Shown piece by piece: positions 24,682-47,681 of a DNA stretch of 64,000 nt. The stretch spans positions 61,628,001 to 61,692,000 of the forward strand of contig OX597821.1 of assembly GCA_951406725.2 (NCBI GenBank). The letters are read 5' to 3'. The notes under the pieces are model-generated. The model searched no databases and was not told the origin of the DNA. It worked only from the letters and a program-made list of their open reading frames with translations. The position numbers were made by a program, and so were the translations under genes. The first letter of the stretch is position 1. Each line of letters opens with the position of its first letter. The DNA is from Octopus vulgaris (lineage: Eukaryota).

Positions 24682-24748
24682 ATCACCTGAAGAATGACTG
24701 TAACTCGAATTTTTACGAATTGGACAGCCATGAAACGATCGTAGTGTT
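24682..24748 (+). ncRNA. Type I hammerhead ribozyme motif in a PLE-type terminal repeat
   Basis: cac-CTGAAGA-atgactgt..acagccat-GAAAC-gatc-GTA-gtg: intact core, stem II, palindromic stem III ACGATCGT, GUA cleavage triplet. Confidence 0.75.
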
Positions 24749-24873
24749 ATACTAATTATCTTTTTTTAATAATTTTGATATATATTTAAAATAATATAAA
24801 TTAATTAATCTTATGTATTGGCTTAAGTTTTTGATTGTATGTCTTGCCTAATAATGGTTTTATCTCTAATTTA

Positions 24874-25039: not shown

Positions 25040-27310
25040 ATAATGACATAATTTTGAAGAAAGACCGGTTTCGCATTTAGCTTTTCAAATTTCTTACGAC
25101 GTTATGTTTATGTTGAATAGAGTTATTGTTATGTTTATGTTCAAAAGAGTTCTAAATAAGGGGAGGCAATGAGTGATTTCTTCCGGTGTAAGGGAGATAA
25201 TCGCTTAAAAATTTTTCCTTTCCCTTGGTGTGAATTTCTCTGTATCAGTATGTTGGGATGGTTAAGTCTGGGCTTGTACTTTTCAATGAAGAATGTTTCC
25301 TTGTTTAGTCTAATTTGTGTTGATGATCCGAGAGCACATTGGTAAAATGGAAAGATTAAAAATTGTGGTAGTAGTTGCTTTGCGCATTTCTCAATGTGCT
25401 CACTAAAAGGTATCATTCTGTATTCTGGGAATGCAATCTGTTGTCGATGCAGTGTGCATCTACGTCTGAGTGATAGTCCCGTGGATCCCACGTAGTCTTG
25501 GTGGCAGCCCGAGCATTTTATGACATAAATTATGTTTTCAGAGGCACAAGTAAAGTTAGATTTGATCTTGAATTCTGTCCCTCTTTAAAGAGGAATTCTG
25601 ATCCTTCTAGCAGGTTTGGACATGTTGCACAGTTCGATCTACCACATTTTTTTACTTTTGCATCCGTAATTTCAGAAGACAATTTTGCCTTTGTGAGAAT
25701 CTTTTTAAGTGATTTGGGTTGTTTGTAGCTTTTAATGATTTGGTGTATGTTTAGAATTTCCTTTAATTTGGGGTCCTTATGAAGTATTGGTAAATTCTGG
25801 GTGATGATGGTGAAGGCTTCTTTGTTTCTGGGGTTGTATGTAGATATGTAAGGTAGTATTTTCGGGGAAGGTGTGTTGTTGTGTTGAACTTTTCTTAAAG
25901 TTTCTATGTTGATTTCTGTTGCACGTCTGATCCCATCCTCTATGAGTTGAGTTGGGTAATGTCTGTCAATTAGGGTGTTTTTGAGTTCTTGCAGTCTAAA
26001 GTTCCTGGTATTTTGTTCTGACACTATTGTGCATATCCTTCTTGCAAGGTTGAAGGGGATGTTTGTTTTAGTGTGTCTTGGGTGGCATGAATTAAAAAGA
26101 AGGTATTGTTTGGCGTCTGTGGCTTTGTAAAAAATGTCTGTTTCTATTTTAAGGTTAATTTTTTAATTAGTATATCCAAGAACGGGAGCTCCTTTTGGTT
26201 GTATTCCATTGTGAACTGTATATTTGGGTTTATGCTGTTCAATAGGTTTTTACATTTTAGGAGTTTATCTGTGTTTTCATTCCAGAGCATAAAACAATCG
26301 TCTAGGAATCGTTTCCAATTCTCTTTTATGTATTGAGAAAGGGAGTTTCCAAAGATTGATAAAGATTCCTGGTAAATGATTATTTCCATGTAGCCCATTG
26401 TTAGGTTCGCAATGACTGGTGCTGCCCTTGTACCCATAGCAATTCCGGATTTTTGACGGTAAAATGTATTGTCAAACATGAAGTGGTTATTGTGTAGGAT
26501 GAGTTCAATTGATTTAGTAATGAATTCTTTACTGATCCTTTTTGGTATTTCTTCCGGAAATTGGTCCAGCCAGAACTATATTGCCTCTAGTCCATAATTA
26601 TGAGGTATACTGGTATATAAGTTAACTACATCAAATGAAACCAGGATTGTTTCTTCCTTGGCTTTTTTTTTTGGAAGGTGGTTTAACATATCTAAGTCAT
26701 CTCTGATATGGCTATCGATATGTTTAAGGAAGGGTTTCAGGAGGATGTCCTTAAATAGACTTAGTCTGTGTGTTTCACAGGTTGGGCCAGCTACAATGGG
26801 TCGTAGTTTTAGGTCCCCGGGTTAGGTGTGTGTATGTATGTCTTTGGTGATTTTTTAATGGTTTCATTTATAATTTGACTTTTATGAATTTTTGGCAGAC
26901 CATAGAAAAGGCTAGGTTTGCATTTAAAGTTTGTTAGAAAGTCAATCTCTTTGGTTGTTAGTTCCTTTTCATGGGTTTTAATTAGTGAAGATAGAGTTTT
27001 CATTATTTTTTGTGGGGTGTAGTTGGTAATTTTTTCATAATGTAGGTCGTCATCAAGCAAGGAAATTACAAGATTTCTGTAGTATGACGTATCCATTATT
27101 ACAACTGCATTTCCCTTGTCTGCTTCCTTAATGGTTATATCCTCATCATTTTGAAGTTCTATCAGTTCTTTCCATTGTGTAGTGTTAAAATTTGAGTTAA
27201 CTTTCTGTTTATGTATAGTATGGTAGGGAAAGTTCTCAATGTGGTTACAGAATTCGTCAAGATCTTTATTTCCTCCTCTGTGAGGGATGTGTTCACTTTT
27301 CTTCTTGACT
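25040..27310 (-). mobile_element. Penelope-like element (RT + GIY-YIG), frameshifted, 5'-truncated
   Basis: IKEADKGNAVVIMD, FYGLPKIHK, GIAMGTRAAPVIANL, WKRFLDDCF, IQFTME..LPFLDI, KKCGRSNCATC, YVGSTGLSLRRR...ETFFIEKYKPRLN; degenerate hammerhead at ~25057-25095 on the minus strand. Confidence 0.95.
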
Positions 27311-27346
27311 AGTGATATTGTATTTCGAGACGGTCATTTTTTGGTT

Positions 27347-31175: not shown

Positions 31176-31424
31176 CAAAGGAATTCCAACTCTGTTTTTT
31201 GTGTGTTTTATTTATATTCTTTATAATATTAATGTAGAATATAGAATATATAGTATAAATAATATATATATAGTAAAATGAAATGAAGTATTAATTGTCT
31301 TATTGAATAGATGAAATATTGAATATCAAATATTAAGGTAGTAGTATACTTTCTTTCATTTAAGCAGTCTTCGAAGTCCCAGGTTCTGACAGTAATGTTT
31401 ATATATATATATATATATATATAT

Positions 31425-34223
31425 ATTTTAACGCTCGCGTGGGATCTGACCATGATTCGTGGCCCATTTGTGTTGGACACTTTGGTATTGGCAACATGAA
31501 TGACAATGGTCAGAGACTACTCGAATTCTGCACATACCACAACCTGTGCATCACAAACACATTCTTTACCAGCAAGCCATCCCACAAGGCATCCTGGAGA
31601 CATCCAAGATCTCACCACTGGCATCAGCTGGATCTCATCATTACACGGAGATCCTTTCTGAGTTCCACTCTATTGACCCGCAGTTACCACAGTGCGGATT
31701 GTGACACAGACCACTCACTAATTAGAAGCAGGGTGAGGATTCTCCCTAAAAAAGTCCATCGCTCCAAGAAAGTGGGCCGACCACGCATCAACACCGCCAG
31801 AACCTCGGACCCTACACTGCGAAAATGTTTTGCTGCTTCTATCAAGGTTGCCCTCAGTAGCTGCCCAACCTCCTCTGCTGAAAGTAGGTGGGACTATATC
31901 AGGGAAGCCTTGTATACGACATCATTGGATACTTTCGGCATGAGAGAAAGGCAAAACCCAGATTGGTTCAATGCTGGGCTCTCAGAGCTGGAGCCAGTTA
32001 TCGAAGCAAAGCGTGCAGCTCTGGTGCAATACAAGAGTGACTCTTCTACAAAGTCACTCGAAGAACTCAGAAAGGCACGAAATAAAACCCAACTGACAGC
32101 CAGATGCTGTGCAAATAGGTATTGGCAGGAAATCTGTCAGAGTATCCAGTCAGCTGCTGACAGGGGCGACACCCGTGGGATGTATGCTGGTTTGAAGAAG
32201 GCCCTCGGTCCATCCGCAACCAAGTCAGCCCCTCTGAAATCAACTACTGGAGATCTCATCAGGGATCAAGGCAAGCAAATGGATAGATGGGTGGAGCACT
32301 ACCAGGATCTCTACTCACGGGAGACCACAGTGGCTGAGGCTGCAGTCGAGAGTGTCAAGATCTTGCCAGTCATGTGCGAACTTGACAGTCCGCCATCTAT
32401 AGCAGAGCTCACCAAGGCTGTTGACTCCCTAGCAAGAAATAAGGCTCCGGGAAAAGACGGCATCCCCTCAGAGATCATCAAAGCCGGCAAAAACACCATC
32501 CTGCTTCGGCACCTTCATGAGCTTCTGTGTCAGTGCTGGGAAGAGGGTACAGTCCCTCAGGATATGCGGGATGCCAACATCATTACGCTCTACAAAAACA
32601 AAGGTGACCGTGGTGATTGTAACAATTACCGTGGTATATCCCTTCTAAGCACTGTTGGAAAGACCTTTGCCCGCGTTATCCTGGCCAGGCTACAACTACT
32701 TGCTTCTCGAATCTATCCGGAATCGCAGTGTGGCTTTAGAAGAAGCAGATCAACTATCGATATGATATTCTCCATACGCCAACTTCAGGAGAAGTCCAGA
32801 GAGCAGAAAATGCCATTATATATGGCCTTCATTGATCTAACAAAGGCTTTTGACTCAGTAAGCAGAACAGGCCTCTTCCTCATGCTCCAAAAAATCCGAT
32901 GTCCACCAAAGCTGCTGAGGATCATCAAGTCTTTCCATGATGACATGCAAGGCACCCTACAGCACAACGGTTCAACATCAGCCGCCTTCCAAATAAAAAA
33001 CGGGGTAAAGCAAGGCTGTGTCCTCGCTCCTACATTGTTTGGCATCTTCTTCTCAATCTTGCTGTCACATGCCTTTCAGACATCAGATGATGGAGTGTTT
33101 CTGCACAGTAGAAGTGACGGGAAACTGTTCAATCTCTCGCGCCTGCGTGCCAAGACCAAAATCAGAAACGTCCTGATCAAGGAGATGTTATTTGCTGATG
33201 ATGCCGCTCTGGTAACACACACAGAAGAAGCCCTCCAAAGGCTCATTAACTGTTTTGAGCAAGCATGTAACGACTTTGGCTTAGCTATCAGCCTTAAGAA
33301 GACCAACATCATGGGCCAGGCTACATCGGACATCCCAAACATACTAATTGGAGACCACAGAATACAAGAGGTGGAGAAGTTTACCTATCTGGGCTCTACC
33401 GTCACCTACAACCTATCCCTTGACGCTGAGCTCAATATACGCATTGGCAAGGCAGCTGCTGCGATGGCCCAACTCTCCAAACGGGCTTGGGACAACAATA
33501 AGCTGACCAAGACCACAAAAATGAAGATCTACCAGGCATGTGTACTCAGCACTCTACTGTATGGAAGCGAGACCTGGACGCTATACACACGCCAAGAGCG
33601 TCGCCTAAACATCTTTCACCTGCGCTGCCTCCGAAAAATCCTCCACATCAAATGGCAGAATCATATCCCCAACAAAGATGTCCTCAGGCAAGCAGGAATA
33701 CCAAGCATGTTTGCACTCCTCACACAAAGACGTATGAGATGGCTTGGGCATGTTAGCCGTATGAAAGATGGCAGAATCCCCAAGGACATACTCTACGGAG
33801 AGCTTGCTAGGGGTACTAGGTCTGTGGGTAGACCGATCTTACGTTACAAGGATGTCTGCAAAAGGGATATGAAGGCCTGCAACATCAACATTAGCGGTTG
33901 GGAATCAGTCGCCGGCAACCGTGGAGAATGGCGACGTACAGTAAAAGAGGGTATACAGAGGAGTGACAGAAAGAGAGAGGAGAAATGGAAAGAAAGGAAG
34001 AGACGTAAACAAGAGACCATGGCACTACAACCAGCCAGGAACAGTCTTCGCTACATTTGTAGTACCTGCCAGAGGGAGTGTTTGTCCAGGATAGGACTAC
34101 ACAGCCACAGCAAGAAATGTAACAGGAAATAAAATATAACAGCCGGACTAGACCTAGAAAAAAAAAAAAAGCGCAACTCCATTGTCTCCCGAGACAGAAA
34201 GGATGCCAAACTCCAAACTCCAA
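31425..34223 (+). mobile_element. Young 5'-truncated RTE-clade LINE inserted in (TA)n
   Basis: Starts abruptly at FNARVG; short 3' UTR with hairpin TGTCTC-cc-GAGACA and a tandem CCAAACT tail; (TA)n on both sides. Confidence 0.97.
31427..34132 (+). CDS. RTE LINE ORF: partial AP endonuclease, reverse transcriptase and C-terminal Cys/His motif (no true start codon)
   Basis: About 900 open codons: FNARVG, LCITNTFF, DCDTDHSL, KAPGKDGIP, NYRGISLL, QCGFR, FIDLTKAFD, GVKQGCVLAP, LFADD, FTYLGS, CSTCQRECLSRIGLHSH. Confidence 0.95.
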   Translation, partial: FNARVGSDHDSWPICVGHFGIGNMNDNGQRLLEFCTYHNLCITNTFFTSKPSHKASWRHPRSHHWHQLDLIITRRSFLSSTLLTRSYHSADCDTDHSLIRSRVRILPKKVHRSKKVGRPRINTARTSDPTLRKCFAASIKVALSSCPTSSAESRWDYIREALYTTSLDTFGMRERQNPDWFNAGLSELEPVIEAKRAALVQYKSDSSTKSLEELRKARNKTQLTARCCANRYWQEICQSIQSAADRGDTRGMYAGLKKALGPSATKSAPLKSTTGDLIRDQGKQMDRWVEHYQDLYSRETTVAEAAVESVKILPVMCELDSPPSIAELTKAVDSLARNKAPGKDGIPSEIIKAGKNTILLRHLHELLCQCWEEGTVPQDMRDANIITLYKNKGDRGDCNNYRGISLLSTVGKTFARVILARLQLLASRIYPESQCGFRRSRSTIDMIFSIRQLQEKSREQKMPLYMAFIDLTKAFDSVSRTGLFLMLQKIRCPPKLLRIIKSFHDDMQGTLQHNGSTSAAFQIKNGVKQGCVLAPTLFGIFFSILLSHAFQTSDDGVFLHSRSDGKLFNLSRLRAKTKIRNVLIKEMLFADDAALVTHTEEALQRLINCFEQACNDFGLAISLKKTNIMGQATSDIPNILIGDHRIQEVEKFTYLGSTVTYNLSLDAELNIRIGKAAAAMAQLSKRAWDNNKLTKTTKMKIYQACVLSTLLYGSETWTLYTRQERRLNIFHLRCLRKILHIKWQNHIPNKDVLRQAGIPSMFALLTQRRMRWLGHVSRMKDGRIPKDILYGELARGTRSVGRPILRYKDVCKRDMKACNINISGWESVAGNRGEWRRTVKEGIQRSDRKREEKWKERKRRKQETMALQPARNSLRYICSTCQRECLSRIGLHSHSKKCNRK

Positions 34224-43877: not shown

Positions 43878-43994
<117 letters not shown>

Positions 43995-44015
43995 CATAAA
44001 TATAAGAGTGTGACC

Positions 44016-44540
44016 ACTATATGGTCGACTCTAGCGCTAAAAATAGATCCGCTATGGTATTAGCCACTAAAAATTCTTTCCAGAGAGAATTAACACAACA
44101 TTTAACGTAAACGAGGCAAGTGAAAAGCAACGAAAATATAGTTCATCAGCAGAATTTGTCTAAAATACAATTTACTGCAGTAAATCTTTTATGCAGTATT
44201 CGTTTCCGGAAGTCTTATCGCAGTTCTGGTGGAGGAATTTGAATTATAACTGCTAGTACAATCGATTAAACCGCACGTGTGTTTGACGTTGTCTTGAAAT
44301 TTAGCGTGCGATTTAATAAATTGTATTTTAGACAAATTCTGCTGATGAACTATAGATGTTGTGTAAGTAAAATTGCATATTACATTAATAGCGAAACAAT
44401 TGTCCAGAGTTAATCTATATTTTCGTTGCTTTTCACTTGCCTTGTTTACGTTAAATGTTGTGTTAATTCTCATTGGAAACAATTCTTAGTGGCTAATACC
44501 ATAGCGGATCTATTTTTAGCGCTAGAGTCGACCATATAGT
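44016..44540. repeat. Fold-back of PLE-type termini (arms 44016-44174 and 44317-44540)
   Basis: Arms are near-identical reverse complements except for ~60 bp present only in the right arm. Confidence 0.93.
44338..44408 (+). ncRNA. Type I hammerhead ribozyme motif
   Basis: tctg-CTGATGA-a-ctat..atag-c-GAAAC-aatt-GTC-caga: intact core, long stem II, palindromic stem III ACAATTGT, GUC triplet, 4-bp stem I. Confidence 0.8.
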
Positions 44541-44638
44541 ATAAATTTTTATTGTATCCCTGGTTTTTATGCGCTAAGCCACTTGGTGTTAAATTGATTG
44601 TATTATTAAATTAATATCCAATTTTTCACCCTTATTTG

Positions 44639-44679
<41 letters not shown>

Positions 44680-44845
44680 CCAATTATATGAGTTTTTATT
44701 ATTTTTTTGCAATTTACTGAATCATTGACATTTTATTGTTATTTTAATTTTAATATTTCAATTATATCTAATTTTCTAGATGGTGTAATTTAATTGTTCA
44801 TTTTGAATTGATAATAGGTGGTGTTTTTCTAATTTTATATATATA

Positions 44846-45358
44846 TCTATATATATAAAACTGTAGTTGTGTGAGTGTCTGTCCCATTCGAATTAGATTC
44901 CTAACTACTCCCACATTTTGCGGTGCAGTTTAACCAAATTCGGGTATCTTATAGCCGTGATTCATATCGAGCCCGTCTGAGTATTAGCGCGCGTCTACGA
45001 TGAGTTTACGATTTAAAAAATAATTTAACATCATTTTTTATTCCATTTTAATGCATAATTTTTCGTGTGTCGATGGCGGCGGAGTTGGCGTCCATGGTCA
45101 CACCTACACCTGTTTGCTTCTCCCCCTTCTTCCCTCCCTCGTGAAGCTGTGGGGAAGGGAGTGTAAGGAAATCAACGTCGTAAAGCGTTGTCAAGGAGAC
45201 AAGCGTTCTTTTAGAACAACGGCTTCATGGCTTGAAGACACCAAAACAGAAATGGCTAAGAAAGCCCGAATTGGCATCTATAAGGGAAGTAACTCTCTAA
45301 AAATGCTTATATAGTTATTTCCCTTACAAATCCGAGCAACGCCGGGCGATACTGCTAG
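44846..45358 (+). mobile_element. Non-autonomous Helitron
   Basis: 5' TCTATATATATAAAA; 3' GC-rich hairpin CCGAGCAACGCCGGG shortly before the terminal CTAG; no TIR or TSD. Confidence 0.7.
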
Positions 45359-45826
45359 CATATATATATATACATATATATATTTGCTTCAAATGTTGCA
45401 CTGTGTGCTAAAAACTTTGCCTGAGAGTTTTTGACGAGTGGACAATTCTCACGAATTGAACAGTTGCATGGTCTTTGTCAAGGAGAAGTTGGCACCTCTC
45501 TTCCATTCAGCTGCGTGCTATTAAACCTCTGATATAGCACCAGACATTTTTGCAAGCTGTATCAGTAGCCTTAACACACATCTTATTCAGTATTTTCTGT
45601 ACAATATTTTCTATGCCCTACGGGGATCTATTAAATTACAATATTCCCTAGCTATATCAATTTGTACTGCTAGATTAAATACTGGGTTTGACCATAAAAT
45701 ATTCCTTTTCCTTTTCTTACTATCTGTAAGCACGATGCTTTTATGTAAGACACTTTATTTCACGTTTGTCCAGTCCACTCAGCTGGCAAAAATGCGTAGT
45801 ACCTGTATTCCAAAGGGCCAGCCTTG

Positions 45827-47681
45827 TCAATCTCTGTGTTGGCTAATGTAAGAGGCGAAATTTCTGCAACAAGAATAGCTAACCTTCAGGGTTCTTCTAT
45901 TAAATATCCTATAGAATTTATGACCCTGCTTAAAATACTTGGAGACTAATCTCAAAAATTCCTTACCTATATTAGTCTTTACGGCCAAATTGAAAGCCGG
46001 GTTGAACCACAAAACTTTCCTGGTCCTAGTTCTTCGTGCAGTATTATTATCAGCATTAAGCTGGTTGTACTGGATCTTCTCAGAGAATCCAAGTGGAAGG
46101 CTCATCGGGATACAAGACATACACAGGGGCTTCAGAAAATTCATTTAAAACAAGATTTTATTCTCATAAAAATTCATTTAAATACCCAGAGAATAGGAAG
46201 AGGACCAGCCTAGCAAAATATGTCTGGGAACTAAAAGAAAAGGAAACCCCACCTTTCAACGTGACATGGAGCATTCTGGACAGGGCGGCACCATACAGGC
46301 ATGGAGCATACAAAAATAATTTCAAGTGCAAACTTTGCCTATTAGAGAAGATGTACATCTTATTCAAAGACAATAATTCTTTGAATCAAAGAAGTGAGCT
46401 AATGAACTTATGTAGGCACGCGGCTAAATTTAAAATGTCAAATATAAATATACCATATGGATAGAGTATATATTTTGTATTTTTGATTTTTGAACTTTTG
46501 ATTTTGACTCTTGAACTGTGAGCGCTACGATGGATTTTGTTTTTGTTTCAAACTATACGGATTTTAATCCGTATAGCAAAGTCTTATGTTTCTACATATG
46601 CATTAGGAAAAACCTTCGGCTTTGTTTATTTCATGTTATTGTATTGTATAGGATTACCTTGATTATTTATAAATGATCAAAATAGGGTGTTATATTTTAT
46701 TTTATATGTCTTTCGTATATATTTTTATTAGTGCACCCATTTTTTTTTTTAAAGCAATGTTTTTTTAAAAAAAGCAATGTTGTCAAAAATTAGAATTTTT
46801 TTATATAAGTATGTGTATAGCCATGGATATATATTTGTAAGCATGCGTATCTGTGTATGTGTAAGTGAACGTATGTTTGTGCTTAAGCACACATATACAC
46901 GACTGTATATATATGTATCCATTCGAACTTGTGTATCTGTATACTTGTCTCCATATATGTCAATAATGCCATTACACAGCTTGTATACATAATTTTTTCT
47001 TATTTCGTTTTTTCCCCACCCCTCCTTCGTTCCTTTTTCTCTCCCTTCCTTTCTTTCGTCCCCCCTTACTCAGTATGTGAGAATCGCTACATAGATGTTT
47101 TTAACTTGCGTGCGAGATGGTTTGCGTGAATATATGTACGCATGCATTTATGTATATATTTAGATTTATATTTATACGTCTGTATATGTATGGCGTTTGC
47201 ACGCATCCTTCTGTGTATGTTGATATATATATGTACATTTTAATATAAATATGTATTGCAGTGTAATATTTATAACAGGTTTAATTTCTATGCATTAATT
47301 TATACTTTCTTCACTAACGTCAATATGTATTTTATTCAATGTAAGGTTTTTTCCTCGGATTTTATAATTTTTATAAGTTTTTATATATATATATACATAT
47401 ATTTTTGACCTTTTTGTTTATCGCTCGAAGATTGACCGTTTTTTTCTAAAGGGCCAATCAAACAAGTCCATTTCTTTTTAAAGGTGTAGCGTTTGTAAGA
47501 GTCTAGATTGAATTGATATATCGGTTCCATTCTAGCAAAAACTGTCTGATGAACGGCAACGAGAAACTCAGAGTAACAGATTTTGTTGAATTTTCTGCTG
47601 CTTAAAATAAAGCATATTACTCTACCACTGGTATTTGAGTACTCTTTTTTCCACCTTGTTTCACATTTATGTGTTTACTCC

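Follow-up and report, generated by a model that had tools for sequence, protein, structure and literature searches.

Background

Insertions of Penelope-like elements have a recognizable shape. In the accessible text of two studies, an inverted 5'-truncated copy, a tail on one side, and TA targets are standard features (PMC8557442, PMC3846280). The origin of tandem and inverted insertions is called undefined in the first of these, as far as its available sections go, and inverted Penelope structures were earlier read as the result of self-priming in those of the second. A purified Penelope enzyme extends both strands of the target and initiates at two internal positions, which delimit the tail; it is predicted to be a dimer, and hammerhead cleavage is not needed for insertion (PMC11167929). 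Expression of metazoan non-LTR retrozymes as circles is described for coral, mussel, and axolotl in the accessible part of Cervera and de la Pena 2020 (PMC7229834), in whose main text, to that same extent, the word "inverted" is absent. The animal retrozymes were proposed to be non-autonomous derivatives of Penelope (Li, Clavereau and Pollet 2026, 10.64898/2026.07.22.740005, in the sections available).

Here, we analyze a fold-back with a hammerhead ribozyme in a window of 64,000 nucleotides of Octopus vulgaris (the window being the whole stretch of DNA under study), located on contig C8 of a 2.8-Gb assembly on which all genome-wide counts were made. We read the element, with a probability of about 0.85, as an old and decaying non-coding retrozyme-type copy, for whose insertion a Penelope-like retrotransposon enzyme is the likely agent, and in which the 65-nt gap of one arm is likely functionless. 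As a locus, it is an unremarkable dead repeat that has suffered two small deletions; the rule that governs the ends of its family matters more.

Genomic setting

The window consists mostly of repeats, including a LINE reading frame, Penelope-like fragments, and DDE fragments. No host gene was found among its 27 long reading frames, 11 of which were scanned with Pfam. An open frame of 922 aa from a non-LTR retrotransposon occupies 31364-34132 on the forward strand (RVT_1, E 1e-34). On the reverse strand, at 25141-27333, a broken Penelope-like element is spread over several frames with weak matches to RVT_1 and GIY-YIG, and has a C-x4-C-x2-C linker that we take to be Neptune-like. A frame fragment at 46060-46464 was called GIY-YIG-like by eye and had no match in the Pfam scan. 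It is followed 1.1 kb downstream by an unrelated minimal type I hammerhead (47542-47579, forward strand) and then by a TA tract; fragment and hammerhead together are probably the 3' end of a Penelope-like element. Neither of these Penelope-like fragments (25141-27333 and 46060-46464) has DNA likeness to the repeat unit described below. The window has two other repeats associated with TA tracts: a hammerhead of a further family at 24687-24750 (forward strand), close to listed matches of the hammerhead pattern used below and near the tract at ~24880 in which it ends, and a copy of another young repeat at 44840-45360, whose 40 scored relatives (of 1,383 candidates) are 94-98% identical.

Anatomy of the fold-back

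The original prediction described two near-identical inverted arms between 44016 and 44540, and the arms were borne out. The segments 44016-44141 and 44415-44540 are complementary at 96% across 126 nt, and further inward the pairing is perfect over 38 nt (44137-44174 with 44317-44354). The reported extent was too short: by alignment to intact relatives, the element runs from ~43991 to ~44641, and the edges at 44016 and 44540 are the mark of another deletion, by which the right arm lost 22 nt. Both outer ends merge into TA tracts, a TA/CA microsatellite on the left (43881-43990) and a TA microsatellite on the right (44642-44679), which are the two parts of the insertion target. A target-site duplication is unreadable in such tracts.

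The left arm (43991-44174, reverse strand) is a 5'-truncated inverted copy of the repeat unit that maps to unit positions 144-406, with its extent taken from an alignment to the intact relative L004, and that held about 250 nt of the unit prior to its deletion. Its outer end is one of the two end sites of the family, called A; this end (43991-44015, reverse strand) lies outside the coordinates first reported, its partner in the right arm having been mostly lost with the 22-nt deletion. The right arm (44173-44641, forward strand) is nearly one whole unit of ~500 nt, as aligned to the relative L007, and its outer end is the other site, B. The arms meet head to head at 44173-44174, where two bases (TA) are claimed by both alignments. 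The hairpin loop (44175-44316, forward strand) is not a separate spacer; it is the 5' part of the right arm's own unit, contiguous with the arm in relatives and without a partner in the shorter left arm. Comparison with relatives also delimits the tail, the ~100 nt between A and B, which is present in the right arm only (44541-44641, forward strand).

The element has no ORF of 120 aa, and a reading frame with RT and GIY-YIG is absent from it; it is therefore non-autonomous. Its GC content is 0.31 in the hammerhead, and that of the surrounding 2-kb bin is 0.35.

The hammerhead ribozyme

The right arm carries a type I hammerhead at 44335-44411 (forward strand), recognized from its core and stems, a match to Rfam, and covariation among relatives. 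Stem I has 7 bp (44335-44341 with 44405-44411), stem II has 4 bp and a long loop (44350-44353 with 44388-44391), and stem III has 2 bp closed by the palindromic ACAATTGT at 44396-44403. The core is made of CUGAUGA (44342-44348) and GAAAC (44393-44397), with a GUC triplet at 44402-44404 and a cut predicted after C44404, so that the type I arrangement (CUGANGA ... GAAA ... UH with stems I, II, and III) is present. The Rfam model Hammerhead_1 (RF00163) matched 44336-44410 with 22.9 bits (E 0.0013 in a scan of 161 bases), under the gathering score of 34; the long loop of stem II is scored as an insertion. A young relative scores 25.3 bits against the Rfam hammerhead model, also under this score. 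The Rfam scan of the whole window gave only matches of microsatellites to miRNA models, and the hammerhead was not listed.

The complete type I hammerhead with GUC and palindromic stem III that had been announced for this arm is indeed there, but it is not fully canonical: position 10.1-11.1 (44349 and 44392) is an A.C mismatch instead of G-C. The accessible text of PMC4209133 describes the G10.1-C11.1 pair as highly conserved, and hammerheads with such a short stem III as requiring a dimer partner. The element has one intact hammerhead, and two consecutive complete ones were not found at the locus. Given this single ribozyme with no tandem partner, the 2-bp stem III, and the missing G10.1-C11.1 pair, good self-cleavage would probably not be expected from this copy. 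The other arm keeps the complement of CTGATGA and the 5' strand of stem I, as anticipated, in a remnant at 44143-44156 (reverse strand).

Among the relatives, G10.1-C11.1 occurs in none of the 48 complete copies of the nearer subfamilies and in 24 of 71 copies of the wider set. In the 48 copies (loci L001-L102), the position is C.C in 21, A.C in 10, A-U in 10, and C.U in 5. The nearer subfamilies are present at dozens of loci without this pair, which suggests that a weak ribozyme is no bar to mobilization. The fold itself is well preserved: 96% of the cells of stems I and II are paired across 71 distinct copies with four main versions of stem I. Slid pairings reach 18-44%, and none of 1,000 shuffles, which ignore the kinship of the copies, reaches 96% (maximum 84%). 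Position N7 varies freely, with all four bases occurring. Hence, the stems were kept by compensatory change while N7 was left free, which implies that the ribozyme was selected in the source elements.

A superfamily of non-coding hammerhead repeats

Searching the assembly with the right arm gave 53 matches from the best 40 of 1,852 candidates. A 17-nt hammerhead word had 41 exact matches (control 0), one of which, L055, is a non-family copy. A motif common to the subfamilies had 325 matches (control 1); this count was made with a looser pattern, a 27-nt pattern combining two variants having retrieved one locus only. A hammerhead pattern, which also catches other families, had 2,121 matches (control 26). 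Judged by sequence comparison, the element is a copy of a non-coding hammerhead repeat superfamily with a unit of 500-535 nt that inserts in TA microsatellites. The original prediction had suggested a non-coding retroelement related to Penelope, and the comparison of the family supports this part of it.

The unit has ~500 nt in the nearer subfamilies, where partial tandems of 500-505 nt occur. It has 532-535 nt in a young subfamily, 66-75% identical, whose arms can be arrays of as many as 13 units, each carrying a hammerhead. The tandem arrangement of units that each have a hammerhead, which characterizes retrozymes, is thus found at the level of the family. The young subfamily includes L154 (G000:C1:40931796-40938491) and L155-L158, with canonical G10.1-C11.1 hammerheads in two-armed arrays; the arms hold 13 plus 1, 8 plus 4, and 7 plus 2 hammerheads. 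Units in opposite arms of the young arrays differ by 0.14% (L155) and 0.19% (L157), relative to 0.7-3.4% between loci, and a third young locus (L158) is uninformative on this point, its unit having a deletion. In older loci, the arms resemble each other more closely than their best match at any other locus in just 6 of 25 cases. This is expected from a best-of-many comparison, but it does not as yet speak for a single template common to both arms of old copies.

We mapped 93 non-redundant loci, among which 50 are head-to-head fold-backs, 42 have a single orientation, and 1 is complex. The inverted 5'-truncated copy next to the 5' end, typical of Penelope-like insertions, is therefore present at the study locus and at 50 of the 93 loci. 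Two whole hammerheads were found in 8 fold-backs, one in 25, and none in 17; the study locus, with one full and one partial hammerhead, is counted among the 25. The inner joints differ at nearly every locus. The sole shared joint is that of L127 and L129 (G000:C1:205.72 Mb and 206.35 Mb), which have equal arm lengths in opposite orientation and are probably a segmental duplication. On C2, two motifs at a distance of 3.8 kb (L134) were considered as a single element, which was rejected, as they correspond to two separate short inserts.

Outer ends pair one A with one B

The outer ends of the family fall at two fixed sites ~100 nt apart, A at unit position ~390-400 and B at ~490. Both ends are at one of these sites in 41 of the 50 fold-backs, and all 41 have one A and one B; the 9 others have one end elsewhere. 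Copies in a single orientation split evenly (21 A and 21 B). When the 12 loci chosen through the B motif are set aside, together with a probable duplicate (two loci share breakpoints), 28 A+B pairs out of 28 remain. An additional 20 loci were selected only by their hammerhead; both ends were called in 8 of them, and again all 8 are A+B. The pairing is then 36 out of 36 in unbiased loci (p 1.5e-11 relative to a coin toss). Accordingly, the tail of ~100 nt is on exactly one arm in 41/41 and 8/8 scorable two-armed loci. Tracts of (TA)3 or more flank both ends in 40 of the 41 A/B fold-backs. Within the literature listings and papers covered, we found none that states the one-A-one-B rule or describes this repeat family; what was listed on twin priming together with Penelope concerns other elements.

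The most likely course of insertion would begin with an enzyme that nicks a TA tract on both strands. Each of the two DNA ends would then prime reverse transcription on the RNA, one from site B and the other from site A. After random termination, the resulting cDNAs would be joined head to head by a short microhomology (here the TA at 44173-44174), giving a fold-back because both copy sequence upstream of A. The template was probably a circular or multimeric RNA produced by hammerhead cleavage, since young relatives hold up to 13 near-identical units per arm, and such a template would let either arm run over many units. At the study locus, the B arm would have run ~500 nt and the A arm ~250 nt. 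Decay would have followed, with the loss of 65 nt between CTATA repeats in one arm and 22 nt in the other, and 5 substitutions.

The main competitor to priming from both target strands is that the same decayed insertion became a fold-back by self-priming, or by a template switch onto the new cDNA, along the model found in the available sections of PMC3846280. The study locus would fit, as its left arm is contained within its right arm (its arm lengths were set by hand in this comparison), and so would the 18 of 41 arm pairs that are nested and the perfect palindromic joint of L133. However, 23 of the 41 pairs are not nested (with a tolerance of 10 nt, two being borderline), and 6 share almost no sequence. 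An arm that is not nested in the other cannot be a copy of it, and copying from the cDNA gives no reason for the second arm to stop always at the other fixed site. The strict A+B ends and the non-nested arms thus favor priming from both target strands, and we regard self-priming as unlikely.

We consider it a little better than an even bet that retrozyme RNA is inserted by Penelope-type enzymes through double priming that is coupled and asymmetric. A dimer would prime both nicked strands on a single circular RNA, strictly once at A and once at B, and each subunit could roll round the circle. If this is true, a single mechanism would account for three features of Penelope-like elements and retrozymes: the inverted copy, the tail on one side, and the tandem arrays.

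Search for an adjoining autonomous element

The arms could instead be pLTRs that belong to an autonomous Penelope-like element and were truncated ahead of the reading frame, and not a stand-alone repeat. Such stubs are common for Penelope-like elements in the text available from PMC8557442, and the accessible part of 10.64898/2026.07.22.740005 relates retrozymes to pLTRs. However, what lies upstream of the unit in relatives is another unit and not a reading frame, no ORF is present in arrays of as many as 13 units, and the loci tested have no contiguous match to Penelope proteins. With five protein fragments from the window as queries, no autonomous partner was found in the 1.5-4.5-kb flanks of the loci tested, nor did any adjoin 20 loci with the B-end motif or 9 loci with diverged hammerheads. 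Penelope-like protein pieces are found near L065, L074, and L131, set apart from the repeat by TA tracts. We thus hold a truncated pLTR to be very unlikely and retain the non-coding repeat as the unit that was inserted.

Two private deletions

The original prediction placed a gap of ~60 bp in the left arm. The gap is real; its length is 65 nt, and it lies between two CTATA repeats that are both present in the right arm (44350-44354 and 44415-44419). A single CTATA remains at the joint in the left arm (44137-44141, reverse strand), a microhomology of 5 nt. The 65 nt left without a partner (44355-44419, forward strand) comprise the loop and 3' strand of stem II, GAAAC, stem III, the cut site, and the 3' strand of stem I. 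The genome search for other copies with the same asymmetric deletion, which had been proposed as a check, showed that the junction is unique to this locus: it has one exact match in 2.8 Gb, the study locus itself (control 1), and the sole match with one mismatch is unrelated DNA without family sequence. Among the 173 loci compared, it is in no other copy. Uniqueness of the deletion was the first half of the outcome that the original prediction had named as refuting it. The joint of the 22-nt deletion in the right arm (44538-44541, forward strand), with a GT microhomology, is likewise private, with one exact match in the assembly and two with one mismatch (control 3).

The arms of the study locus differ at 5 of 157-159 nt (3%), 4 of the 5 differences being rare alleles, and the divergence between arms over 32 family loci is 206 of 5,291 nt (3.9%). 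The 65-nt gap is likely a later or one-time microhomology deletion without function. Microhomology deletions are a described way for Penelope copies to die (PMC3846280, accessible text). The original prediction also offered a one-off rearrangement as an explanation. This is true of the deletion, given its unique joint, but not of the fold-back, which is the commonest form in the family (50 of 93 mapped loci).

Contigs from four public DNA runs (three organism labels) show the family to be present over 43996-44318, and loose contig ends at 44137 continue into an intact hammerhead. None of the contigs listed from these runs bridges the deletion joint or the arm joint, and holes at these places carry no weight. 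Of the public records listed as containing the sequence, none is labelled as RNA, which says nothing for or against expression. In the same runs, the summed contig depth over 44018-44061, which is not a copy number, is tens to a thousand times that of neighboring parts. This segment is just upstream of site A, is common to the subfamilies, and is a candidate enzyme-binding structure.

Hairpin and ribozyme as predicted alternative folds

The asymmetry of the two arms had led to the proposal that the hairpin of a read-through transcript excludes the ribozyme fold, and that the element could be switchable. The first part agrees with our folding predictions: in the read-through RNA, the probability of stem I is 0.00, and the hammerhead can be imposed only at a cost of 24 kcal/mol. 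Even for the right arm by itself, the predicted probability of stem I is just 0.003, and stem III stays under 0.08 in every context folded. The circular fold of one unit has a z of -2.1 relative to 60 shuffles, too weak for use.

The second part is not supported. Selection for an alternation of hairpin and ribozyme in the read-through RNA would accord with the predicted mutual exclusion of the two folds and with the 3' half of the ribozyme being left unpaired in a 65-nt bulge by the deletion. Yet the joint of this deletion is unique and has a 5-nt microhomology, and the stem has a second private deletion and mismatches. The hairpin is favored by the full 24 kcal/mol, the forward strand transcribes the blocking arm first, and stem I is disfavored even when the right arm stands alone. 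In a relative with two intact arms, the predicted cost of the hammerhead is 115 kcal/mol; relative to the 24 kcal/mol found here, the deletion weakens the block of the hairpin and does not create it. Moreover, a hammerhead in one arm only is the most frequent state of the family's fold-backs (25 of 50), a partial or missing second hammerhead being a routine product of truncation. We find a switch extremely unlikely. A related idea, that the 65-nt bulge acts in trans as half a ribozyme completed by another RNA, was dropped, as only 7 plus 4 bp would be available and there is no sign of selection.

Finally, half of the mapped copies have inverted arms, as would a MITE or fold-back DNA transposon moving as a hairpin with terminal inverted repeats, but we see next to no chance of this, since the inner joints vary, the outer ends always fall at two different sites where identical termini would be needed, 42 of 93 copies have a single orientation, and relatives form tandem arrays.

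Comparison with known systems

At the DNA level, the superfamily has the features of a Penelope-mobilized non-LTR retrozyme. It resembles the metazoan non-LTR retrozymes, as presented in the accessible parts of their descriptions, in its non-coding AT-rich unit with one type I hammerhead and a short palindromic stem III, and in the range from monomers to long tandem arrays within the superfamily. Its unit has 500-535 nt, relative to ~300 (PMC7229834) and 51-972 (10.64898/2026.07.22.740005) in the available text of these works. With one intact hammerhead, the study locus fails the test for active copies given in the portion of 10.64898/2026.07.22.740005 at hand.

The likeness to insertions of EN+ Penelope-like elements is close as far as the available descriptions go: a head-to-head inverted copy, a tail at one end, partial tandems, TA-microsatellite targets, and microhomology deletions in dead copies. 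In contrast to them, the repeat family has no reading frame, and its tail has ~100 nt where theirs usually has 30-40. Furthermore, every two-armed copy scored here has the tail on one arm and one only, whereas the accessible text of the papers on Penelope-like insertions has "often" or "optionally".

The L1 twin priming credited to Ostertag and Kazazian in 2001 is another system to be compared. There, both nicked strands reportedly prime on the RNA and the arms are joined by microhomology, resulting in an inversion; the second primer is said to act at variable internal sites, with arms that normally do not duplicate each other. The repeat family differs in having two fixed sites and arms whose sequences overlap.

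A further comparison is with the PAc Poseidon enzyme in vitro (Frangieh et al. 2024, PMC11167929), where both strands are extended, two start sites bound the tail, and targets are AT-rich, as in the repeat family. It differs in showing no difference in start site between strands, with end pairs unscored, whereas the two ends of the repeat family are always of different kinds. Since there is no strand difference in vitro, the strict pairing of A and B is not yet explained by experiment. The one-A-one-B rule and the non-nested arms make a sharp prediction that is open to the existing in vitro system (PMC11167929), and they tie retrozyme arrays to Penelope enzymes by the footprint of insertion, beyond the likeness of their sequences.
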